This document shows positions 30,354 through 55,500 of a stretch of DNA of 64,000 nucleotides, piece by piece (within the stretch, counting starts at the first letter, position 1; every line of letters starts with the position of its first letter). The stretch spans positions 918,619 through 982,618 of the forward strand of contig CAWDFY010000005.1 in the NCBI GenBank assembly GCA_963801745.1. Reading direction: 5' to 3'. Below the pieces are notes generated by a model, which did not search any database, was not told the DNA's origin, and worked only from the letters and a program-made list of their open reading frames with translations. The stretch is from an uncultured Chloroflexia bacterium (GTDB lineage: Bacteria; Chloroflexota; Limnocylindria; Limnocylindrales; CSP1-4). A program made the translations under genes and the position numbers.

Positions 30354-32988
30354 GTGGTCGAGAGCGACATCACCGACCGGACGCTGCCGACCGGCACCGT
30401 CACGTTCCTCCGGACCGATGTCGAGGGCTCGATGGCCCTCAGCCGAGCCCTCGGGTCGCGCTGGGACGCGCTGAACGACCGGCACCTCGGGCTCATCCGC
30501 GGGGCGGTCGACGCGGCCGGCGGGGTGGTCGTCCGGACCGAGGGGGACGCCGTCTTCGCGGCCTTCCAGGAAGCCGGTGCCGGCGTCCGGGCGGCCATCG
30601 AGGCGCAACGGGCCCTCGTCGAGGCCGACTGGCCGGCGGACGCGCAGATCCGCGTCCGGATGGGTCTCCACAGCGGCGAGGCGCACCTGGCCGGCGACGA
30701 CTACGGCGGTTTCGACGTCAATCGGGCAGCGCGCGTCGCTGCCACCGGTCACGGCGGCCAGATCATCCTCAGCTCCACGACCCGCGGTCTGGTCGAGTCG
30801 TCACTGCCGGATGGCGTGGACCTCCGCGACCTCGGACGGCATGCGTTGCGCGACCTGCCGCAACCCGAGCAGCTGTTCCAGCTCGACGTGCCAGGCCTTC
30901 GAACGGCATTCCCGGCGCTGCGCACCGCCATGCCGACCATCGGTGATCTGCCATCGCGGATGACCAGCTTCGTCGGTCGCGAGGCCGAGCTCGATGAGCT
31001 ACGCGAGCTGCTGGGCGAGCAGCGGCTGGTGACGCTGACCGGTCCTGGCGGGATCGGCAAGACGAGCCTGGCCGTAGAGACGGCGCGCTCCGTGGCCCAC
31101 CGCTTTGCCGACGGGGCGTGGTTCGTGCCGCTCGCCCAGGTCGACGAGCCGTCGATCGTAGCCTCGGTCATCGCCCGCACGATCGGCCTGTTCGACGGAC
31201 CCGCGAGGCCCGCCAGAGATGCCCTCGGCCCCTACCTCGCCGAGCGGTCGGTCCTGCTCGTGCTCGACAACTTCGAGCGCCTGCTCGACGCGTCGAGCGA
31301 TGTCGCCGACATCCTCCGCGCGTCATCAGCTTCGAGGATCCTGTTGACCAGCCGGGCGCCACTGCGGATCCCAGGCGAGCAGGAGTATCCGGTCAGGCCG
31401 CTGGTCGAAGCCTGCCCGACGCTGTTCGTGGAGCGCGCACGAGCGGTCAAACCTGGCTGGGAGCCCGGGGCCGAAGCAGCAGTCCTCGATGACGTGTGCT
31501 CCCTGCTCGACGGGCTGCCGCTCGGGGTCGAGCTGGCAGCGGCCCGCGTCGCGCACCTACCGGTGACCGCCATCCGGGACCGCCTGGCTGCGCGCTTGCC
31601 GCTCCCGGGTGCGGGCCCGCGCGATGTGCCGGACCGGCAGCGCACGCTGGCGGCCGCCTTCGAGTGGAGCCACGACATGCTCTCGACCGGATCGCAGCAT
31701 GTCCTGCACGATCTGGCCGTATTCGAAGGTGGGTTCGACCTCGACCAGGCCACGCAGGTGGTTCAGCCGACCGATGACGGCGTCGACGTGCTCGATCACC
31801 TCGTGGCGCTCGTCGACCAGAGCCTCGTCAAGCGCGATGCGGAGGACTCGGTCGGATCCGGGATCCGCTTCCGGCTGCTCGCGACGATCCGTGGCTTCGC
31901 GCTCGAGCGACTTGACGGCGAGGGCCGATCGGAGGAGGCCCGGCGGCGGCACGCCGTCGCGTACCTCGCGCTGGCCGAACAGGCGGCGCCGACGATGCCG
32001 GGACCAAACCAGCCGCGGTGGCTAGCGCGCCTGACCATCGACTACGACAACATCCGCGCGGCGATCCGATGGACCATCGACGCCGGTGAGGTCGAGCTCG
32101 CGTTGCGGTTCGTGGCCGCGATGTGGCGCTATTGGCAGCAGGATGGCCATCTTGTCGAAGGCGCCGACCTGGCGGAGGCGGCGCTTGCGATGCCCGGTGC
32201 CGATGCCACGACGGAGCATCGGCTTGCTGCCGTCACGGCGGCGGGTGGGATCGCGTACTGGCAGAACCGGCGAGCGGACGCGCTCGGGTGGTACGAGGAG
32301 GAGCTCGCGGTCGCACGCCGGCTCGGACACGTGGCAGGCGAGGCGGACGCCCTCTGGAACCTGGCCTACGGACGATATGTCGCCGAGGATACGTCGGGTG
32401 CGGAGGAGCTCCTGCGACGGTCTCGTCGGCTGTTCGAGCAAGTCGGTGACGAGCGAGCGATCGCGCGTGTCGATTGGTCGATAGCGACGCTGCTTGGCGC
32501 GATCGCGATGAGTCGGGAACAACTGCCAGTGTTCGAGTCTCTGCTGGACAGAATTCGAGCGCCTCGGCGACCCGTGGTACGCCTCTCAAGCGAAGTCCAG
32601 CATCGCCTGGGTGCTGTTCATGACCGGCGACCTGCCCGGCGCCAGTCGCTGGTACATCCGCGGGCTGACGACGGCGCTTGGCCTTCGAGACCTTACCGGG
32701 GCGACCATCTCGCTCGAGGTCGCGGCTGTGGTGGCCGCGGAAGCCGGGCGGCCCGAGGAGGGTGCGGCGATGATGGGGGCGTCCGAGCACCTTCGCGAGC
32801 TGTACGGGGTGGAGCCACCACAGGGTTTGCAGGAGCTCATCGGACAGGCGTCGCCGCGCGAGCGTCTCGTGGCGCTGCTCCTCCCGGACCGCTTCGCGGC
32901 CTCGTTCGACCGCGGCCGGCAGATGACGATCGATGAGGCGGTCGCCCTGATCATCCGGGTCCAGGACGAGACCTGGGGTGGCGCTTGA
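30354..32988 (+). CDS. class III nucleotidyl (adenylyl/guanylyl) cyclase + NB-ARC/AAA ATPase + TPR (STAND) protein, copy 1; frameshift near 32552
   Basis: The cyclase domain reads TVTFLRTDVEGSMALS...RTEGDAVFAAF...RVRMGLHSGEAHLAGDDYGGFDVNRAARVAATGHGGQII. Walker A is LTGPGGIGKTSLA. The C-terminal 125 aa (ORF 32611..32988) is homologous to the end of copy 2 but lies in a different frame. The gene begins 10 nt after the CNB-transporter stop. Confidence 0.75.
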
Positions 32989-35633
32989 CACACGCAGGTA
33001 CCGACCGGACGCTGCCGACCGGCACCGTCACGTTCCTCCGGACCGATGTCGAGGGCTCCATGGCCCTCAGCCGAGCCCTCGGGTCGCGCTGGGACGCGCT
33101 GAACGACCGGCACCTCGGGCTCATCCGCTCGGCGGTCGACGCGGCCGGCGGGGTGGTCGTCCGGACCGAGGGGGACGCCGTCTTCGCGGCCTTCCAGGAA
33201 GCCGGTGCCGGCGTCCGGGCGGCCATCGAGGCGCAACGGGCCCTCGTCGAGGCCGACTGGCCGGCGGACGCGCAGATCCGCGTCCGGATGGGTCTCCACA
33301 GCGGCGAGGCGCACCTGGCCGGCGACGACTACGGCGGTTTCGACGTCAATCGGGCAGCGCGCGTCGCTGCCACCGGGCACGGCGGCCAGATCCTTCTGTC
33401 GGGCGCATCGCAGGCGCTCGTCGCCGACGCACTGCCCGACGGCGTCACGCTGCGCGACCTTGGCACGTACGTGCTGCGCGACGTGCCGCGCCCGGAGCGG
33501 CTGTTCCAGGCCGACGCCTCCGGCCTGCCGACAGCGTTCCCGCCGCCGCGCGCCGGTCGGGTCGAGATCGGCAACCTCGACGATCGACTCACGACGTTCG
33601 TCGGTCGGGACGAGCCCGTCCGAGAGCTGCGGGAGCTCCTCGGGACGTCACGGCTGGTGACGCTCACCGGGGCGGGCGGCATCGGCAAGTCGAGTCTCGC
33701 GTTGGAGACAGCTCGGGCAGCCCAGGAGGGGTTCGCCGACGGGGCGTGGTTCGTCCCGCTTGCGACCATCGATGGGACCGAGGAGGTGCTGCCTCTCGTC
33801 GCCCGGACGCTCGGGCTGTACGACGGTTCGGCGAGCTCGGCTGCCGACACGCTTCCGCGCTTCATGGCCGATCGCTCGCTCTTACTCCTCCTCGACAACT
33901 TCGAGCACGTCGTCGATGCGGCGCCGGTCGTGGCGAACCTCGTCCGGTGGTCGTCTCGATCGCGAGTCCTGGTCACGAGTCGGACGCCACTGCGTCTCGC
34001 CGCCGAGCAGGAATATCCGGTCGCCCCGCTCACGGTCGAGGCAGGTGCAGACGTGAGTCCGCCCGACGGCGACACTCCCGCTCGACGATTGTTCGTGGAT
34101 CGGGCTCGGGCCGTCCGTCCAGGCTGGGATCCCGGGACGGAGATCTCGGTCGTGGACGAGATCTGCCGGCTCGTCGACGGCCTGCCGCTCGGGATCGAGC
34201 TGGCCGCCGCCCGAGTGGCGCTGCTGCCGCTCGGCGCGATCCGTGATCGCCTGGCCGCGTCGCTACCGCTGCCCGGCGCCGGGTCCCGCGACGCTCCAGC
34301 GCGCCAGCGGACGCTTGAGGCCACCGTCGAGTGGAGCCACGGCCTGCTGAGCCCCGATCTCCAACGCGCACTGCACCGGTTCTCGGTATTCGAGGGCGGC
34401 GCGGATGTCGACCAGGCCCAGGACGTGTTGGTGGATCACGGCGCCGCCGACGACGTCCTCGACCGACTCGTCGAGCTCGCCGAACGAAGCCTGCTCGAGC
34501 GCGACCCCTCGCCGCTCGGCATCCGATTCCGGATGCTCCGAACGATCCAGACCTTCGCCGAGGTGAGACTCGAGCACGACGATGACGAAACGGCGGTCCG
34601 CCGCCGGCACGCCCAGACCTTCCTGGATCTCGCCCGGCAAGCGCAACGAGACGAGGGCACGGCTGCACAGGTCCCCTGGATCGAGCGCCTGTCGATCGAC
34701 GATGCCAACCTTCGCGCGGCGATCCGTTGGGCGATCGACCACGACGCGCGTCTTGCGCTCGCACTCGTGGCGGCCGCCTGGCGGTTCTGGCAGACCGACG
34801 GCCATCTCACCGAGGGCCGCACGCTCGCCGACCGGGCCCTCGCGTTGCCCGATGCCGCCGCCCCGACGGTCGAGCGGATGTGGGCGGTGGGTGCCGCGGG
34901 GAGCATCGCATACTGGCAAGCCGACTCAGAGACGGCACAACGTCGCTACGAAGAGCAGGTCGCCCTGGCCCGGGCGCTCGACGACGAGCGGGGCATCGCC
35001 GACGCCCTCTTCAACCTCGCCCATACGGAGTTCATCCATCTGGCCGATGCGGAAGCGGCGCACGTCCTGCTCGATGACGTCGTCTCGCGATACCGGGATC
35101 TGGGCGACGAGCGCGGGGTAGTCCGGGCGGAGTGGGCGGCCAGCAACGTGCTCCTCGACGAGCACCGGACCGAGGAGGCGACGGCCTTGATGCAGCGGCT
35201 GCTGCTCGAGTTCGAGCGACTCGGCGACACGCAGTATCACGCGATGGCGCTCGGGAGCCTGTCCTGGGCGGCATTCATGGCCGGGGACACGCAGGATTCG
35301 ATCGGCTACGCCGCGGGTGCGCTGCGCGAGTCGTACGACATGCGCGACCTCGGGACCACGACGATCTCGATGCATGTCGGCGTCCTGATCGCGCTGATCA
35401 CCGGGCGACCGGAGGTGGCTGCACGGCTGACCGGTGTCTTCGACGCCGCGAGCGAGCGCTATGGCGTCAGGCCGCCGGCCGCGCTGGACCGGTTCCTCGC
35501 CGACCAAGATCCGTTCAGCGCGGCCCGGGAAGCGCTCACGCCCGAGCGATGGGAGATCGAATACGCGGCGGGCCGCCGGATGAGCCTGGGTGAGGCCGTG
35601 GACGTCGTGGAGTCCATGGCCCCGACCCGCTGA
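32985..35633 (+). CDS. class III nucleotidyl cyclase + NB-ARC/AAA ATPase + TPR (STAND) protein, copy 2 (intact)
   Basis: The N-terminal 150 aa are near-identical to copy 1 at the protein and DNA level. Walker A is LTGAGGIGKSSLA. The C-terminus is a TPR-like helical region. The TTG start overlaps the copy-1 stop (TTGA). Confidence 0.85.
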   Translation: MTHAGTDRTLPTGTVTFLRTDVEGSMALSRALGSRWDALNDRHLGLIRSAVDAAGGVVVRTEGDAVFAAFQEAGAGVRAAIEAQRALVEADWPADAQIRVRMGLHSGEAHLAGDDYGGFDVNRAARVAATGHGGQILLSGASQALVADALPDGVTLRDLGTYVLRDVPRPERLFQADASGLPTAFPPPRAGRVEIGNLDDRLTTFVGRDEPVRELRELLGTSRLVTLTGAGGIGKSSLALETARAAQEGFADGAWFVPLATIDGTEEVLPLVARTLGLYDGSASSAADTLPRFMADRSLLLLLDNFEHVVDAAPVVANLVRWSSRSRVLVTSRTPLRLAAEQEYPVAPLTVEAGADVSPPDGDTPARRLFVDRARAVRPGWDPGTEISVVDEICRLVDGLPLGIELAAARVALLPLGAIRDRLAASLPLPGAGSRDAPARQRTLEATVEWSHGLLSPDLQRALHRFSVFEGGADVDQAQDVLVDHGAADDVLDRLVELAERSLLERDPSPLGIRFRMLRTIQTFAEVRLEHDDDETAVRRRHAQTFLDLARQAQRDEGTAAQVPWIERLSIDDANLRAAIRWAIDHDARLALALVAAAWRFWQTDGHLTEGRTLADRALALPDAAAPTVERMWAVGAAGSIAYWQADSETAQRRYEEQVALARALDDERGIADALFNLAHTEFIHLADAEAAHVLLDDVVSRYRDLGDERGVVRAEWAASNVLLDEHRTEEATALMQRLLLEFERLGDTQYHAMALGSLSWAAFMAGDTQDSIGYAAGALRESYDMRDLGTTTISMHVGVLIALITGRPEVAARLTGVFDAASERYGVRPPAALDRFLADQDPFSAAREALTPERWEIEYAAGRRMSLGEAVDVVESMAPTR

Positions 35634-35649
35634 CCACCGAGATCCTGAT

Positions 35650-36615
35650 TCAGCTCGGGTCGATCCCCCAGTCGACGAAGTACTCGTTGTCGTTCGGCGT
35701 GTTCGTGACCTGGACGAGGTCCGACCCGTCGAGCGCCATCGTGTAGATATCGGCGTTGTCGGACGTGCCGACGGCCATGTTGAACACAAGCCGGGAACCG
35801 TCAGGCGAGAACGTCGGTGCGTTCCCCCAATTGTGGTCCGGGGGAAGGTCGATCATCCGTAGGTCGGACCCGTCGGGTCGCACGAGGATGAACCGGGTCT
35901 CGGTGTACGGCACCAAGGCGCGACCGGCGGCCAGCCACTGGCCGTCGCGCGACCAGCTCACCTCGTTGCCGACCGGGTCGGGGATGACCTGGTGTGCCGC
36001 ACCGGTGTTCACGTCGGCGACCCAGATCGTACCGGTGTCCTCACCCGCATCGCCACGCACGAAGGCGAGCTGCCGGCCGTCCGGCGAGAAGTCACCGGGG
36101 ATGTCGTTGCCGCCTTGGCCGTTCGTCGTCAGCCGGGTCGGGCCCGAACCGTCGGCGGCGTTGGCGAGGAAGATCCCGTTGCGGGACGTGTCCTGATCGT
36201 TCCATCCTTCGGACGCGAGCCGGCGCCCGTCGGGGGACCATGTCGAGCAGCCGAGCGTCACGCCGTCGCCCGTGTTCGGGAACGCGGTCTGGCCCGATCC
36301 GTCGACGTTGATGGTCCCGAAGCCCACGGACAGACGGCGACCGTCCGGCGAGAACTGCGGGCATTCGTTCGGACCAGGGATGACCACGTGGACGTCCGAC
36401 CCATCCGGGCGAGCGATATGGACGACTGTGTCATCGACGGCTGCGGAGAAACGGCCGAAGACGATCGGGCCGTTCTGGACCGGGATCGGTGTCAGTCGCC
36501 AGCCGCCGACCGTGAGGCCGACGGCGACGATGGCGATCAGCAACGCGAGGACGAGGAGGAACGCCCAGACCGGTGCGATGTGCATCCGGCCGAACGAGCG
36601 TGCAGTGGTAGTCAT
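35650..36615 (-). CDS. TolB-like / PD40 WD40 beta-propeller protein with N-terminal TM anchor
   Basis: AGGAG lies 8 nt before the ATG at 36615. The TM helix is MHIAPVWAFLLVLALLIAIVAVGLTV. PD40 repeats recur (FSPDGRRL, WSPDGRRLA, FSPDGRQLAF, WSRDGQWLA, FSPDGSRLVF). Confidence 0.7.
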   Translation of the reverse strand: MTTTARSFGRMHIAPVWAFLLVLALLIAIVAVGLTVGGWRLTPIPVQNGPIVFGRFSAAVDDTVVHIARPDGSDVHVVIPGPNECPQFSPDGRRLSVGFGTINVDGSGQTAFPNTGDGVTLGCSTWSPDGRRLASEGWNDQDTSRNGIFLANAADGSGPTRLTTNGQGGNDIPGDFSPDGRQLAFVRGDAGEDTGTIWVADVNTGAAHQVIPDPVGNEVSWSRDGQWLAAGRALVPYTETRFILVRPDGSDLRMIDLPPDHNWGNAPTFSPDGSRLVFNMAVGTSDNADIYTMALDGSDLVQVTNTPNDNEYFVDWGIDPS

Positions 36616-36768
36616 CGGATGGCTCCTGAGGGACGCCAGCCAGACCGGCTGCTGCCGGCGACCGGCAGTCGTGTCGAGGATCGCGTTCGACCTGGCCATC
36701 CACGATGGTTCGGTCGGCGGTGATCTCGAGATGGGCGCGGAGGATCAGCTCGACGTCTCGCTGTGCGT

Positions 36769-37322
36769 TCATGTCGGGCGCTCCGCTGGACGTGCGATGG
36801 GCCGATCAGCCGCGTCGACGCTGGCCCGCAGGGCCGCGAGGGCGCGGTGGATCCGGGACTTCATCGGCCGGTCGGGATGCCAAGGACTGATGCTGCCTCG
36901 GCGACCGGGAGGTCGAGGTAGTAGATCAATACGAGCACAGTCCGCTGATCGAGCGTGAGACCCTGGAGGCCGCGCTCGATCTGGTCGGTGACCGCGAAAG
37001 TCGATTGAAGGTCGGCGCCGTCAGGATGGTCGGTCGACTGGAGGGGCAGCTCGACGACGCGCCGGCGGGCCCGCCGGCGCGAGTCCTGACAGGATCTGAC
37101 GAGGAGACGAGTCAGCCAGGCTTGGAACTTGTCGGGCTCACGCAGCCCGGGAAGACTCCGCCACGCGTCGACGAAGGCGTCCTGGACCGCGTCCTCGGCG
37201 AGGCCATAGTCGCGAAGGATCAGCCGCGCGATCGCGTTGAGCCGGCCGATCGAATCCGCGACGAGGCGCGCGAAGGCGTCATGATCGCCTTCCCTCGCCA
37301 GGATCACGAGATCTCGATCCAT
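36769..37322 (-). CDS. ECF (sigma-70 family) RNA polymerase sigma factor with 1-nt frameshift near 36862
   Basis: Region 2 reads DAVQDAFVDAWRSLPG...FQAWLTRLL. Region 4 reads LTLDQRTVLVLIYYLDLPVAEAASVLGIPTG. The ORF then stops. The next frame reads MKSRIHRALAALRASVDAADRPIARPAERPT*, the canonical region-4 end. The indel is in accggccgatg. Confidence 0.7.
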
Positions 37323-37368
37323 CCTTGCCGCCTGACCTGACGCGGATATCTTCCGCGCTCGACGTGTA

Positions 37369-37396
37369 TGTCCGTCGCGGTCTGGGGTTTGGTTCC
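37369..37396 (-). promoter_or_regulatory. candidate autoregulated ECF-type promoter (GGAAC -35 ... CGAC -10-like) upstream of the sigma factor gene
   Basis: The minus-strand sequence reads tatGGAACcaaaccccagaccgCGACggaca, about 60 nt upstream of the sigma ATG. The match is weak. Confidence 0.2.
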
Positions 37397-37554
37397 ATAT
37401 TCGTCGCCGCGACTCGACCTACCCCTCCGTCTCCGGCGTCGGCCAAAACCTGCCATATGTTCATCAGGCGCACACAGGACAGAGTTCCGTGCGCGGCCGC
37501 GGGAGGGAGACGCATCTCGGACGAACGGTGCACAGATGGCAGGAAGCCGGGCCG

Positions 37555-38340
37555 TCAGTCGGGTCGGCCGGCCATCAACTCGCGCATCGCGGCCAGCTCG
37601 GATCGGATCTGCGCGAGCTCGACCTCCAGGCGCGAGGTCGCCTCCGCGGTCGCCGCTGTGTCGTCGTCATCGTCCGGCACCAGCACGCTGGCCAGGATGC
37701 TGGCGAGCGACCCGATGATCCCGACGCCAGCGAACATCACGAACACGGCGGTCACTCGACCGAGGGTGGTCACCGGGAACGCGTCCCCGTAGCCCACCGT
37801 CGTGATCGTCGCGAGTCCCCACCACAGCGCGTCGCCGCCGGTGGTGATGTTCGCGTCGGGTGAGCGAACCTCGAACTGGAGAATGAGCACGGACGATGCG
37901 GACAGGACGATGAACGCCGAGAGGAACGTGATGAACAGGGCGTACTTACTCCGGTTCTCGATGACGTCGCGCATGATCGAGCTCTGGTCCTTCGCCCGCA
38001 TCAGGCGGAGGATCCGCGCGACGCGGCCGAGGCGGGCCAGGCGGAACAGCACGGTCAACCGGAACATCCCCAGGCTGGGGATCGAGCCGAGCAGGTCCAG
38101 CCAGCCGCCGCCGCTGATGAAGTACTCGCGCCTCGAACGGGACCGCGCGATGTTCATCGCGAAGTCAACCAGGAAGATCACGCAGATCACATTGTCGAAG
38201 ACCGACAGTGCCGTGAGGGTCGCGTCATCGAGCGGGAGCAGCAGTAGCGCCATGATGACCAGCGACTGGATCGTCAGGACCAGGATGAAGATGTCGTAGG
38301 CGTTGCTGTGCTGCGGCACGGCGCGAGTGTCGGCGGTCAC
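37555..38340 (-). CDS. voltage-gated potassium channel (6-TM, Kv/KvAP-like)
   Basis: The S4 voltage sensor reads RLTVLFRLARLGRVARILRLMR. The pore selectivity filter is TTVGYGD. S1-S6 hydrophobic helices are present. The acidic C-tail is DDDDD. Confidence 0.85.
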   Translation of the reverse strand: MTADTRAVPQHSNAYDIFILVLTIQSLVIMALLLLPLDDATLTALSVFDNVICVIFLVDFAMNIARSRSRREYFISGGGWLDLLGSIPSLGMFRLTVLFRLARLGRVARILRLMRAKDQSSIMRDVIENRSKYALFITFLSAFIVLSASSVLILQFEVRSPDANITTGGDALWWGLATITTVGYGDAFPVTTLGRVTAVFVMFAGVGIIGSLASILASVLVPDDDDDTAATAEATSRLEVELAQIRSELAAMRELMAGRPD

Positions 38341-38467: not shown

Positions 38468-38878
38468 TTAGGTGCGCGCCGCCTTGTGACCGCCCTCGGC
38501 TCGGCGCGCGGCGCCCCAGCCCGGATCGCCCGCGGTCGCTGCGTAGCCACGGTTGGTGAGGTCCTCGAGCTCCGACAGCAGCACCTCGTCGACCTTCGCG
38601 AAGTTGAAGCACGACTTGCCCTGCATGCGCTTGCGGAGCGCTGGCGACACGTCGTCGAGCAGGTCCGGCTTCGCGTACACCGGCATCAGGTAGTAGCTGA
38701 CGTAGCGCTTGCCGACCCGCGTCGCGCCGAACCACGTCGACGGGTCGCGCTCGGCCTCGGGCGCCATGTCGACGCCGAACCACTGCGGCGAGTCGGCGGA
38801 GACGTACATCTCCCTGGCGTACGGCGCGAGCATCCCCTTGAACCGCTCGAACAGCTGGCCGAACTCGGCCTCCGACAT
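38468..38878 (-). CDS. DUF1801 (YdhG-like) domain protein
   Basis: 136 aa with protein-like composition. It lies 14 nt downstream of the E1beta stop. Confidence 0.55.
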   Translation of the reverse strand: MSEAEFGQLFERFKGMLAPYAREMYVSADSPQWFGVDMAPEAERDPSTWFGATRVGKRYVSYYLMPVYAKPDLLDDVSPALRKRMQGKSCFNFAKVDEVLLSELEDLTNRGYAATAGDPGWGAARRAEGGHKAART

Positions 38879-45873: not shown

Positions 45874-47555
45874 TCAGCCGGCCGGTGGCGGCACCCCGTA
45901 CTCGCGGCGGGCGCTGGCAAGGTACGCGTCGCGCTCGCGTTCGCACTCGTCGTCGTCCCAGCCGAGCTCGCGGGCCATGATCGCCGCCACCCTCGGCGCG
46001 ACGGCCTGACCGCGGTCGGCGAGCTCGGGACTCAACCGGAAGCGGCGCGACAGGACGTCGTCGACGGACATGGCCAGCTCGTGACGCACCGCCCACGCCA
46101 CCTCGGCCTCGAGGAACGGCCGCTCCGGCACGAGCGGCCGGATGAGGTCCAGCTCCTCCCCGAGCGGCCACGACGGCGGACGCCTGGGATCCGTGCCGCG
46201 CGACCAGGCGCGCCTGCGGCGTCAGGGTGCGCCGCGGCCACGGCCGGGTGCGCCGCGATCTCCGTCACGAGCCGCGGCAGTGCATCGGCATCGGCCGCCC
46301 CGACCAGCCGGTGCTCGGCCGTTCCGCTGGGCCGCCGCCGCGCTTCCTCGGGCCCGAGGGCGGCATCGATCACGTCTGCGCGCCATGACCCGGTACGTCG
46401 TGTACTTGCCACCACCGATGCGGACGACACCGTTCGACTCGACCGTTACCCGATGCTCGCGCGACGCCTTGACGGTCGAGCCTCCCGACGGCGCGATGAG
46501 CGGCCGCAGCCCGGCGTAGGTGCCGACCACGTCGGTCCGTTCGAGGTCGACGTCGAGCGTGCCGTTGACGGTCGCCAGCAGCTCGTCGACCTCCCAGCCG
46601 TCGGCCACGGGTCGCTCGAACGGCCCCGTGTACGGTGCGTCGGTCGTGCCGATGACCCAGTGATCCGGCCAGGGCACGAGGAACACGACCTTGCCCGGGA
46701 CGCGGATCGTCAGGCCGGCCGACATCGGGATCCGCTCGCGCGGAACTACGACGTGTGCGCCCCTGCTCGGCTGGATGCGCAGCGACTCGCTCGAGAACGG
46801 GTGATCGGCCTCGGCCGCCCACGCACCCGTCGCGTCGACCACGAGGCGTGTTCGGACCTCGTGCTCGTCGCCGGTCACTCGGTCGACCACGAACAGCGTC
46901 CGCAGCCCGCCCGGCGCCGCGTCGCCGAGGCCGGTCGCTCGGGCTCGCGTCAGGACGACTGGCGCGGCATCCGTCGCGAGCGCGGTCCTGGCCACCGCGA
47001 GGGCGAGGCGAGCGTCGTCCTCGACACCGTCGTGGTAAAGGAGCGCCGCCGCGCAGCCGGTCCCGGCGGAGCGCGGGCGCGACCTCGAGGGTGGCAGCGA
47101 CGCCGAGGCGCCGATGCCAGCCGCCGTCGTGACGGGCGCCCAGCAGGTCGTACAGCGTGAGGCCGGTGTCGTAGAACGCCTTGTGGACGACCGGCAGGCC
47201 GTAGATCGGGAAGAGCTGCGGCTCGAGCGTCACGAGGTGCGGGGCGTTGCGCAGGAGCCGGCCACGCTCCGCGCAGCCCCTCGCGGACCAGCGGGAAGTG
47301 GAGCTGCTCGAGGTAGCGCAGCCCGCCGTGGATGAGTCGCGACGATCGCGACGACGTCCCCGACGCGATGTCGTCCTGTTCGACGAGCGCGGCGCGCAGC
47401 CCGCGCGTCGCGGCGTCGAGCAGAGCGCCCGACCCGACGATGCCGCCACCGACGATCACCACGTCCCAGGTCTCGTCGACCAGGCGAGCGAGGTCGGCCG
47501 ACCGGCGCTGGAGTGGGGCCGATAGGTCCGCGGGCTTCGCTCCCGGCCCCGTCAC
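45874..47555 (-). pseudogene. glpD: FAD-dependent glycerol-3-phosphate dehydrogenase, at least 4 frameshifts
   Basis: Consecutive GlpD segments lie in four different minus-strand frames. These are the FAD site (DVVIVGGGIVGSGALLDAATRGLRAALVE...SGTSSRSSRLIHGGLRYLEQ), then RNAPHLVTLEPQLFPIYG..., then ...GAHVVVPRERIPMSAGL...GKYTTYRVMA, then the C-terminus PFLEAEVAWAVRHELAMSVDDVLSRRFRLS. Confidence 0.7.
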
Positions 47556-49551: not shown

Positions 49552-49630
49552 CGACAAGTGAGCGACGGTTGACCGGGCGATGACCGACGACGCGTACGAT
49601 GCTCGTGCATCCGCCCGGGAGGTTCGTTCC

Positions 49631-50343
49631 ATGGCCGTCGCCACGCTGCCCTTCACCGGCTTCCGCCCCGAGGCGATCGACTTCCTCGCGGACCTCGCCC
49701 AGAACAACGACCGCTCCTGGTTCCAGCCGCGCAAGGCCGACTACGAGCGGCTCCTCAAGGAGCCGATGGAGGCATTCGTCGAGGCCCTGGCCGAGCGGCA
49801 TTCGAACGCCGAGACCTGCCGCTCCAGGCCGATCCGAAGCGGTCGATCTTCCGGATCTACCGCGACACACGCTTCGCCAAGGACAAGTCGCCCTACAAGA
49901 CCCACCTGGGCGCGAGCTTCCCGTGGGTGGAGGGCATGGACCCGGACACGGCGATGTCCCACGGCGAGCACCGCAACGGCGCGTACTTCCACCTCCAGCC
50001 GGGCAACAACTACGCCGGTGGCGGGATGTGGCGCGCCTCGAAGGCCGTCCTCGACGCCTTCCGCCAGGCCATCCTCGACGACGAGGCGCGGGTCCGCGCG
50101 GCGCTCGAGGACCCCCGGTTCATCGCCGAGTTCGGGCCGGTCGAGAGCCACGACACCCTCAAGCGCGTGCCGCCGGGCTACCCGCCCGACCACCCGATGG
50201 CCGAGCTGTTCCGCTACAAGGACGTGGTCTTCGGGCGACGGCTGTCCGACGACGAGGTCTACTCCGCCGAGCTGCCCGACATCCTGGCGACGGCGTACGC
50301 CTCGGCGACGCCGGTGTTCCGGTTCCTGTCCTCGCTCGACTGA
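49631..50343 (+). CDS. DUF2461 / TIGR02453 family protein, 1 frameshift near 49815
   Basis: The N-terminus reads MAVATLPFTGFRPEAIDFLADLAQNNDRSWFQPRKADYERLLKEPMEAFVEALAE. The next frame reads DPKRSIFRIYRDTRFAKDKSPYKTHLGASF...RVPPGYPPDHPMAELFRYKDVVF. Confidence 0.7.
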
Positions 50344-50352
50344 CGACGGAGG

Positions 50353-51295
50353 ATGCGGTTCGGCGCTGCGTTCTGGATCCAGCGCACCAGCTGGCCCGAC
50401 CTGCGCGATGCGTGCCTCGCCGTCGAGGCGGCGGGCTGGGACTCGATCTGGCTCGACGACCACCTGCTGTCGGACGAGGGGGACTGGAGCGACCCGAAGC
50501 TGGAGGGCTGGGCGTCGCTCGCCGCGGTCGCATCGCTGACGACGCGCGTCCGCCTCGGGCTGCTGGTGTCGTCGACGACGTTCCGGAACCCGGGGCTCAT
50601 CGCCAAGCTGGCGACGACGCTGGACCACGTGTCGGGCGGGCGGAGCGTGCTCGGGCTCGGCGGCGGCTGGTTCGGCCGCGAGCACGACGCCTTCGGCATC
50701 GATTTCGGGACAGGCTTCGGGGAACGGCTCGACCGGCTCGACGAGGCGACGATGATCGTCCGGCGGCTGCTCGACGGCGAGCGGTTCTCACACGCCGGCC
50801 GCTTCTTCCGGGTCGACGACGCGGTGTGCGAACCGCGCCCCGTGCAGGAGCGGCTGCCGATCCTGATCGGCGGCTCCGGGCCGACCAAGACGCTGCGCAC
50901 GACGGCCCGGTACGCCGACCTGTGGAACGGCTATGGCGACCCGGACCGCATCGCCGACGTGTCCGAGGTCCTGCGCACCCGCTGCGGGGAGGATCGGCCG
51001 TCCGTTCGAGTCGATCGAGCGGACCGTGACGGTCCACGCCGTCGTGCGCGACACCGCGGCGCACGCGGTCGAGGCGTGGACGCCGATCGCCAAGCGGCAC
51101 GGCCTGGTCGACCGCGTGGCCGCCGACGGCACCGATCGGGGCCTCACCGTCGGTGGTTCGCCGCAAGAAGTAGCCGCGTACCTCGACGGCTATCGCCGCA
51201 TCGGGGTCGGCGAGGTGGTGTTCGTGTTCCGCCACCCCTTCGACCTGGAGACCGTCGGGCGGCTCGACGAGGTCCGGGCCGCGCTCGGCGGCTAG
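50353..51295 (+). CDS. LLM-class F420-dependent oxidoreductase (second copy), 1 frameshift near 50990
   Basis: The N-terminus reads MRFGAAFWIQRTSWPDLRDACLAVEAAGWDSIWLDDHLL. The C-terminus GRPFESIERTVTVHAVV...GVGEVVFVFRHPFDLETVGRL is in the +1 frame after the cggggag run. Confidence 0.7.
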
Positions 51296-53729: not shown

Positions 53730-55183
53730 TCAGCCGCCCGTGTTGATCATCACGTGCTTGACGAACGTGTAGTCCTCGAGCGCGTACTTCGAGCCGTCCT
53801 TGCCGTAGCCGGACTGCTTCACGCCGCCGTGCGGTGTCTCCGACGCCAGCGTGAAGTGCTCGTTGATCCAGACGTGGCCGAACTCGAGCGCCTTGGCGAC
53901 GCGCATCGCCTTGCCGATGTCGCTCGTGAAGATCGACGACGCGAGGCCGTAGGGCGTGTCGTTCGCCCACTGCGATCGCCGTGTCCTCGTCGCTGAAGCG
54001 CTGGACCGTGACGACCGGCCCGAAGATCTCGTCCTGGATGATCTCGGACTTCTGGTCGGGGCCGGCGATGATCGTCGGCTCGTAGTAGGCGCCAGGCCGG
54101 TCGGGCCGCTTGCCGCCGACGACGACCTCGGCGCCGCCGCGCGCGCGGTCGACCATGCCCTCGACCTTGTCGGCCTGGGCCTTGGCGATGAGCGAGCCCA
54201 TCTCGATGTCGTCGCCCTCGGCCGGGTCGCCCCACTTGATCGTGCGGACCTGGTCGGCGAGCGCCGAGACGAAGTTGTCGTAGACCTTCGGCCCGGCGAT
54301 GACGCGGGTCGCGGCCGTGCAGTCCTGGCCGGAGTTCCAGTAGCCGGCCGAGCGCAGGGTCTCGGCGGCGAGGTCGATGTCGGCGTCGTCGAAGACGATG
54401 ATCGGCGCCTTGCCGCCGAGCTCGAGGTGCAGCCGCTTGACGGTGTCGGCGGCGATCTTGGCGATGCGCTTGCCGGTCGCCGTGTCGCCGGTGATCGAGA
54501 CCATCCGGACCTTCGGATGGCCGACCAGCGCGTCGCCGATGTCGGCGCCCGAGCCGGACAGGACGTTGACCACGCCCGGCGGCAGGATGTCGGCGAGGAT
54601 CTGGGCGAACGCCAGTGCGGTCAGCGGGGTGCGGGCCGAGGGCTTCAGCACGACGGTGTTGCCGGTCGCGAGCGCCGGGCCCGAGCTTCCACGTCGCCAT
54701 GTAGAGCGGGTAGTTCCACGGCGCGATCGACGCGACGACGCCGATCGGGTCGCGCCGGATGATCGACGTGTGGCCGGCCAGGAACTCGTTGGCGGCGAGG
54801 CCGTCCATCACCCGCGCGGCGCCGGCGAAGAAGCGGAACAGGTCGGCGCAGGTGGCCATCTCGTCGATCGCCGCACCGACCGGCTTGCCGGCGTTGGCGC
54901 TCTCGAGCCGGCCGAGCTCGTCGGCCTTGGCATCGAGCGCGTCGGCGATCTTGAGCATCAGCAGCGAGCGGTCCTGCGGGGTCGTCTGCTTCCACGTCTC
55001 GAAGGCCGTGTCGGCGGCCTCGACGGCCCGATCGACGTCCTCCTGCGAGCTCGCCGGCACGTTGGCGATGACCTCGTCGTTGGCCGGGTTGACGACCTCG
55101 GCGGTCTTGCCGTCGGCGGCATCGACGAAGTCGCCGCCGATGAGCTGCTGGTAGGTCTTGGCTCGTTCGAGGGTCTCGGTCAC
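53730..55183 (-). CDS. aldehyde dehydrogenase (NAD(P)+), 2 frameshifts (about 54645 and about 53935)
   Basis: GTG start. The N-terminus up to [17 protein letters not shown] is in frame 1. The middle [14 protein letters not shown]...ELGGKAP...GQDCTAATR... is in frame 2. The C-terminus [15 protein letters not shown]...[24 protein letters not shown]...INTGG* returns to another frame. Confidence 0.8.
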
Positions 55184-55500
55184 GGGTCGCTCCTCCGGGC
55201 GTGACGGATCGGGTGGGAAAGTGTCGCCATCCTAGTCCCGGACCGGTAGCGGCGTCCCGCAGCGTGGGCGCCGGGAGCGCCGGGAATGCTCGGCCTGTGC
55301 TGTGGCGCCCGGGCGGTCGGGATCGTCGCTCAGCGGTGCTATCGACGAAGGACGGCCCGCTGTTCGGTCGATGTCGTCGCCCAGCGACGCAATTGACCAC
55401 GAAGCTCGATCCCAAGGGTCGAACGCACCGGCCAGCGACAGGTTCAACCAAGGTGCTCGGTCCATAGCACCGCCTGGCGACGATGGCGGCGCCACCGCGT

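Follow-up and report, generated by a model that had tools for sequence, protein, structure and literature searches.

An extracytoplasmic function sigma factor and its probable propeller-bearing anti-sigma factor, split by two one-base indels in the assembly of an uncultured Chloroflexia bacterium

Results

Genes and features of the locus

We analyzed a 64,000-nucleotide stretch of contig CAWDFY010000005.1 from an uncultured Chloroflexia bacterium (referred to here as the window; G+C ~70%) and focused on the minus strand of positions 35650-38340. We found that this strand carries three genes, which encode a Kv-like channel (a voltage-gated K+ channel), a sigma factor of the extracytoplasmic function (ECF) type and a membrane-anchored PD40 protein. 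All three had been recognized in a preliminary description of the same DNA. In the assembled sequence, the sigma gene and the PD40 gene are each interrupted by a one-base indel, and once these are mended the two genes form what is probably an ECF sigma/anti-sigma pair. The features are as follows, with open reading frames abbreviated as ORFs, transmembrane as TM, amino acids as aa and nucleotides as nt.

36769..37322, minus strand: ECF sigma factor gene, 184 aa after a 1-nt deletion at 36866/36867 is mended
36861..37322, minus strand: sigma ORF as assembled, 153 aa, with its tail in a different frame at 36769..36864
35650..36772, minus strand: putative single-pass anti-sigma gene, 373 aa after an extra base at ~36682 is removed
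35650..36699, minus strand: PD40 propeller ORF as assembled (ORF list, Pfam)
36772..36683 then 36681..36577, minus strand: N-terminal module (N-module) of the putative anti-sigma factor, aa 1-65, cytoplasmic
36499-36576, minus strand: TM helix of the putative anti-sigma factor, aa 66-91
35653-36480, minus strand: six-bladed PD40 propeller of the putative anti-sigma factor, aa 98-373
36431..36772, minus strand: 113-aa ORF, not a gene; codons 1-30 are coding and codons 31-113 are out-of-frame read-through
37367..37396, minus strand: candidate ECF-type promoter upstream of sigma, with GGAAC at 37392-37396, GACATA at 37367-37372 and a spacer of 18-19 nt
37341..37357, minus strand: inverted repeat CGCGGA-N5-TCCGCG, downstream of the putative -10 element and ahead of the ribosome-binding site
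37555..38340, minus strand: gene for a KvAP-like 6-TM voltage-gated K+ channel, 261 aa (Pfam, PDB relative)

For comparison, we used 17 orthologous loci (L001-L017) from a scan of species-representative genomes; with the window, these make 18 sequences.

Two one-base indels and an ORF that is not a gene

The assembled sigma ORF starts at 37322 and ends at 36861 with ...GIPTGR and a stop. By three-frame translation, we found the rest of sigma region 4.2 in another frame, where it reads MKSRIHRALAALRASV...PT and runs up to a TGA at 36769-36771. When the deletion at 36866/36867 is mended, this TGA overlaps an ATG at 36772 as ATGA. The preliminary description had placed an ATGA overlap at the sigma stop; this holds for the mended gene and not for the assembled one, which stops at 36861, and the indels themselves had been overlooked.

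The ATG at 36772 opens the 113-aa ORF, which is present as had been described and lies out of frame over the propeller gene. It begins with MNAQRDVELILRAHLEITADRTIVDGQVER, and the propeller frame carries on from there with ILDTTAGRRQQPVWLASLRS...; the extra base at ~36682 splits codons 1-30 of the ORF from the propeller reading frame, and the ORF arises from this insertion. The G+C content by codon position is of the coding type in codons 1-30 (0.77/0.33/0.80) and is not in codons 31-113 (0.87/0.65/0.53), while over the DNA of codons 31-113 it is the propeller frame that has a coding-type pattern (0.65/0.53/0.86). Homologues match residues 1-30 alone, with none for codons 31-113, and a Pfam scan of the ORF returned no match. 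Because codons 1-30 match the N-termini of intact propeller homologues, the propeller protein is the anti-sigma candidate and there is no separate 113-aa gene. The earlier suggestion that the ORF may supply an anti-sigma factor with its true N-terminus is essentially borne out, in composition and in homologues, for codons 1-30, and fails on both counts for codons 31-113. An independent anti-sigma gene that overlaps the propeller gene could be argued from the position of its ATG on the frame-corrected sigma stop; however, the same ATG starts a propeller gene of 365-373 aa in 16 intact loci, and with neither coding composition nor homologues in codons 31-113 and no Pfam match, we give such a gene almost no chance. 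On these sequence grounds, the 113-aa ORF is not a gene, and what its first 30 codons encode is the real beginning of the propeller protein.

Frameshifts across the window

The closest relative, L001, is 93.6% identical to the window in DNA sequence and is intact at both indel sites. Relative to L001, the sigma and propeller genes have exactly two indels, -1 nt at 36866/36867 and +1 nt at ~36682. A third one-base insertion, at 32553, shortens the first of two cyclase-STAND genes in the same comparison. Elsewhere in the window, an aldehyde dehydrogenase gene (53730-55210, minus strand) lies in three frames that correspond to Pfam model positions 2-149, 148-388 and 387-461, and genes for a DAO oxidoreductase (46438-47513, minus strand), a DUF2461 protein (49607-50343, plus strand) and a luciferase-like protein (50347-51295, plus strand) are each split across frames. 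These split genes indicate that indels are frequent along the whole of the window.

Among the relatives, frame breaks (in Lpd, E1-beta, sigma and cyclase genes) are found only in loci from 'MFD' metagenome-assembled genomes (MAGs) and in 0/7 other MAG loci. The MFD MAGs are assemblies from deep Nanopore sequencing (PMC12313526). Since the breaks in relatives are restricted to Nanopore-derived MAGs and the window has many frameshifts, the window indels are most likely assembly errors. A comparison of the indels with GATC and GAATTC methylation motifs tells little, as GATC is found ~10 times per kb in this DNA.

If both indels were instead real, this organism would carry the sigma/anti-sigma unit, and one cyclase copy with it, as decaying pseudogenes. 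Three coding frameshifts do fall within 4.3 kb (32553, 36683 and 36867) next to intact pyruvate dehydrogenase (PDH) genes, and both members of a co-functional pair are hit. However, at least 8 more frameshifts lie in unrelated genes of the window; the essential genes Lpd and E1-beta are broken likewise in Nanopore MAGs of relatives, and no such break occurs in any of the 7 other MAG loci; and, indels aside, both genes retain full-length homology and a coding pattern of G+C at the third codon position. We therefore consider decay of the unit unlikely and strongly favor assembly error as the source of both indels.

The sigma gene encodes an ECF sigma factor

The repaired 184-aa sigma protein matches the Pfam domains Sigma70_r2 (3e-13) and Sigma70_r4_2 (9e-15) and scores 66.4 bits against the sigma70-ECF model TIGR02937 (cutoff 42.9). 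It has the sigma-2 and sigma-4 domains only and a length within ~170-200 aa, and is thus an ECF (group 4) sigma-70 factor; its closest solved relative is sigma-W (1.7e-13). The protein stays below the cutoffs of the SigE family of Streptomyces (TIGR02983; 113 bits vs 141.55) and of the SigM equivalog (PRK09643; 104 bits vs 190). Sixteen orthologues are intact, all of them 184 aa long, and the mean pairwise identity of sigma among orthologues is 82%.

A conserved candidate promoter precedes the sigma gene

Upstream of sigma, all 18 sequences (alignment A2) have an invariant AAGATGGAAC, a variable spacer of 18-19 nt and an invariant GACATA, and these are followed by an invariant CGCGGA-N5-TCCGCG repeat and then by a CAGGCGG ribosome-binding region. 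The motif GGAAC-N18/19-GACATA occurs a single time in the window, at 37367-37396, and once per orthologous locus in the same place. It also precedes more distant sigma genes on unrelated contigs, whose products are 57-60% identical to the window sigma (GGAAC-N18-CACATAC in L073 and GGAAC-N18-GACATAC in L074). The motif is absent upstream of the neighboring Kv, cyclase, cyclic nucleoside monophosphate (cNMP) protein and PDH genes. A search for ECF-type promoter motifs upstream of the other genes of the block had been suggested, and the one that we found belongs to sigma. A generic pattern, GGAAC-N15-18-CGTY, has 9 matches in the window against 6.5 expected and is not enriched, and scans of 35-39 kb for Rfam families, sigma-70 promoters and terminators came back empty. 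Judging from the conservation of the candidate promoter, sigma likely autoregulates its operon from it.

The inverted repeat CGCGGA-N5-TCCGCG could be a hairpin in the 5' untranslated region or an operator; its fold energy is not exceptional (z = -1.6) and it shows no covariation. Between the Kv stop and the sigma promoter, the window also has a 132-nt insertion relative to L001 (37413-37544). It folds as a long hairpin (-63.6 kcal/mol over 151 nt), and a second copy is absent from the window and from the relative loci that we fetched.

The PD40 protein is a membrane-anchored propeller with a conserved cytoplasmic segment

More than 60 homologues of 365-375 aa cover 100% of the repaired 373-aa protein, including its N-terminus, and those that are named come from Candidatus Limnocylindrales (Chloroflexota). 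In an AlphaFold2 (AF2) model of the orthologue P0002, a TM helix spans residues 66-88 and a propeller spans residues 100-373 with a pLDDT (predicted local distance difference test) above 90. The best Foldseek matches of this model are TolB propellers (E. coli TolB structures; 3e-15, 17-18% identity). In contrast, the NCBIfam TolB model TIGR02800 gives 64 bits against a cutoff of 343, so that the label 'TolB-like' from the preliminary description is right for the fold and wrong for the family. We rejected membership in TolB itself: there is no TolB N-terminal domain, its place is taken by the anchor module and TM helix, and the neighbors are PDH and cyclase genes, with no tol-pal genes. The protein has the six-bladed PD40 beta-propeller fold of TolB from the Tol-Pal system; however, TolB is a soluble periplasmic protein with an N-terminal domain, whereas the protein here is TM-anchored. 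Among orthologues, mean pairwise identity is 75% in the cytoplasmic segment 37-63, the most conserved part of the protein, and 55% in the propeller.

The N-module is paired with an ECF sigma factor across distant relatives

The N-module has the consensus M..D(F/L)(E/D)RxL..WL...A....PDYLD..L.RTA.TRQRPxW...ERWxPM, followed by the TM helix, with RQ(R/Q)PxWL as its conserved motif. AF2 with a deep alignment places its helices at residues 7-18, 27-37 and 43-49, ahead of the TM helix; without deep alignments, confidence in these helices is low. Using a 114-aa N-terminal fragment (P0121) as a phmmer query, we found members in 163 clusters at 50% identity (E <= 0.001), and their ectodomains are one PD40 propeller, two PD40 propellers (~796 aa), PQQ_2/BamB-like plus NHL repeats, or of unknown type. 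A word-indexed homologue search with the N-terminal alignment returned a single fragment, as TM words dominated.

Six distant members were looked up, and in all five for which upstream DNA was available (5/5) an ECF sigma gene lies directly upstream with a 4-nt overlap. The sigmas of these pairs are 51-60% identical to the window sigma, and the remaining neighbors of the five pairs are unrelated to one another and include no cyclase, cNMP or Kv genes. Three more phmmer matches are sigma and N-module fused by frameshifts. Among the orthologous loci, the sigma TGA and the propeller ATG overlap as ATGA in 16/16, so that in close and distant relatives alike the gene has the placement expected of an anti-sigma gene, beside a cognate ECF sigma gene and co-transcribed with it. 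Sigma and the 4-nt overlap, together with the N-module and the TM helix behind it, thus form the invariant unit, and the sensor domain is swappable. A constant unit of this kind with an exchangeable sensor is the signature that one expects of a cognate single-pass anti-sigma factor.

The preliminary description was correct that no canonical zinc-binding anti-sigma factor is encoded here. Residues 1-65 of the protein contain no Cys and no HxxxCxxC, and therefore the N-module has no zinc motif. We rejected a class I anti-sigma domain (ASD), including the zinc-binding type ZAS (zf-HC2, RskA), as there is no Hx3Cx2C and no ASD family match. A reading of RQRP as a Tat signal peptide was likewise rejected, since the motif stands ~25 residues ahead of the hydrophobic helix and most members lack a twin arginine there.

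We also observed a second N-terminal module, cytoplasmic as well and unrelated to the first, MTIDSRGRRAGxDFRR...FERVRVRK..., that is joined through a TM helix to related PD40 propellers. Its genes lie directly behind ECF sigma genes in MAGs of Actinomycetes (L023 7204-8687 and L031 5465-6948; P0108, P0116 and P0119). This suggests that different anti-sigma anchors recruited propeller sensors repeatedly.

Evidence for and against a role as anti-sigma factor

Several results weigh against reading the locus as an ECF sigma/anti-sigma unit behind two assembly errors. Neither Pfam nor NCBIfam gives a match between the N-module and a known anti-sigma family, even at E values up to 10; sequence and profile searches of PDB sequences link it to no solved anti-sigma structure; and a Foldseek search with the N-module model returned no significant match. 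The putative -10 element GACATA differs from the classical CGT-type ECF -10. In addition, assembly error as the source of the indels is a strong inference from frameshift density and not proof. Literature searches for an ECF anti-sigma factor that carries a PD40, TolB or propeller domain returned nothing specific.

The lack of detectable similarity to known anti-sigma domains would also fit a PD40 protein that is not an anti-sigma factor and is instead a co-transcribed target or effector of sigma (for example, in envelope maintenance or peptide binding), with sigma controlled in some other way, and such PD40 propellers do occur as plain secreted proteins or lipoproteins. However, what stays constant across relatives is the sigma gene, its 4-nt overlap with the next gene, and the N-module and TM helix which that gene encodes, whereas the ectodomain is exchanged; conservation within the protein is highest in the cytoplasmic segment; and the conserved neighborhood holds no other anti-sigma candidate. 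We consider an effector role improbable, and the repaired 373-aa PD40 protein a probable anti-sigma factor that would bind sigma.

The sigma pair shows no link to the Kv, cyclase or cNMP genes

The Kv protein has the S4 segment RLARLGRVARILRLMR, in which six Arg recur at every third position, together with the filter TTVGYGD, as the preliminary description had read them. It matches Pfam Ion_trans (3e-22) and Ion_trans_2 (1e-12), and its best PDB relative is KvAP (6uwm, 3e-17), over residues 27-242 (S1-S6). A 6-TM Ion_trans domain, regularly spaced Arg in S4 and a TVGYG filter identify it as a Kv/KvAP-type channel. It shares with KvAP the S1-S6 architecture, the Arg spacing of S4 and the TVGYGD filter, and nothing notable differs; its C-terminal tail is short and lacks an RCK or cNMP-binding domain. 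It is not a cyclic-nucleotide-gated channel, as Pfam finds Ion_trans and Ion_trans_2 only and no C-terminal cNMP-binding domain.

The preliminary description had suggested a tie of the Kv channel and the sigma pair to the cNMP module, by which membrane potential might be coupled to second-messenger output; in the form weighed here, the cyclase genes belong to the same functional module. In all 17 orthologous loci, the order PlsY / Lpd-E1alpha-E1beta-p136 / sigma-PD40 / cyclase-STAND / MFS-HEAT-cNMP is kept, with sigma-PD40 tail-to-tail with the cyclase-STAND and MFS-HEAT-cNMP genes, which might be taken to support such a module. However, these loci come from close relatives, and synteny between them extends over the entire region, PDH genes and PlsY included, so that the conserved order is a poor guide to function. 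The cyclase and cNMP genes converge on the sigma operon and thus are not co-transcribed with it, and of the 18 syntenic loci only 2, the window and L001, have the Kv gene. Together with the absence of a cNMP-binding domain from the channel, the unrelated neighborhoods of the distant sigma/N-module pairs and the restriction of the promoter motif to sigma, this makes a common module very unlikely. The Kv channel, which is lineage-specific, and the cyclase and cNMP genes are unrelated neighbors of the sigma pair.

Some further differences among the loci were seen in these neighbors. A gene for a cyclase-STAND-TPR protein is tandemly duplicated (30354-32988 and 32985-35633) only in the window and L001 and is single-copy in the other 15 loci. 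The copies share 71.6% identity over 2 kb, with N-terminal cyclase domains that are far more alike, and the +1-nt frameshift at 32553 leaves the true C-terminus of the first copy in the ORF 32611..32988. In relatives without the Kv gene (L007 4572-5450, L008 4588-5450 and L010 4506-5450), an opposite-strand gene for a small membrane protein that ends in ...WMIRIYRADPEPxExxWRYR lies at the Kv position; a remnant of it is present in L001 (4073-4564). The 136-aa cytoplasmic protein encoded at 38468-38878 (minus strand), between E1-beta and the sigma region, is conserved in most loci and had no match in Pfam and NCBIfam scans.

Discussion

We conclude, with a probability of about 0.72, that this locus is an intact two-gene ECF sigma/anti-sigma unit that looks broken only because of two one-base indel errors. 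The main value of the analysis is corrective, in that these two probable assembly errors explain the odd gene structure; annotators should not take the truncated sigma gene, the truncated propeller gene and the odd overlapping ORF for pseudogenes or for a new small gene. A link between membrane potential and cNMP signaling receives no support from our analysis.

In the mechanism that we propose, the 184-aa sigma factor is translationally coupled through the ATGA overlap to the 373-aa single-pass protein, whose N-module would bind sigma and sequester it at the membrane. The propeller would sense an extracellular signal, probably by binding a ligand or a protein, and sigma would then be released by regulated proteolysis of the anchor. 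Free sigma would transcribe its own operon from the GGAAC-N18/19-GACATA promoter, along with a wider regulon.

RseA, which controls sigma-E in E. coli, and RsiW, which controls sigma-W in B. subtilis, are single-pass anti-sigma factors from which sigma is freed by regulated proteolysis. The unit described here resembles these systems in that an ECF sigma gene is followed by a co-transcribed gene for a single-pass protein with a cytoplasmic N-terminus and an extracytoplasmic C-terminal domain, and in its GGAAC-type promoter, which would be autoregulated here as well. In contrast to RseA and RsiW, the cytoplasmic domain here has ~65 aa and three short helices, with neither a class I match nor a zinc motif, a PD40 propeller forms the ectodomain, and release by proteolysis is presumed.

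Class I anti-sigma domains average 101 +/- 33 aa, while class II (CnrY/CnrH) and class III (BldN/RsbN) sigma-binding modules are small and have two or three helices (PMC7406223). With three short helices in the AF2 model, the N-module resembles classes II and III more than class I, as a small module that likely folds on its partner; the likeness is one of size and helix count, and no sequence or fold similarity to these classes was detected. An ECF sigma factor is also tied to a beta-propeller sensory domain in ECF57-type sigma factors, which carry WD40-like repeats in a C-terminal extension (PMC8999054). However, in ECF57 the propeller is fused to sigma, whereas here it is extracellular and part of a separate membrane protein.

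More tentatively, the ~65-aa N-module may represent an undescribed class of ECF anti-sigma domain, a suggestion that we hold to be possible and not yet probable. In soil Chloroflexota and relatives, such a class would wire interchangeable extracytoplasmic PD40, double PD40 or PQQ-NHL sensors to a single dedicated ECF sigma clade, whose promoter would be GGAACC-N17/18-ACATA. The anchor module is widespread, unannotated and anti-sigma-like, and it is always paired with one ECF sigma clade and with exchangeable propeller sensors. Together with the promoter motif, it may help to annotate ECF signaling in Limnocylindria and other Chloroflexota, which are abundant uncultured soil bacteria.

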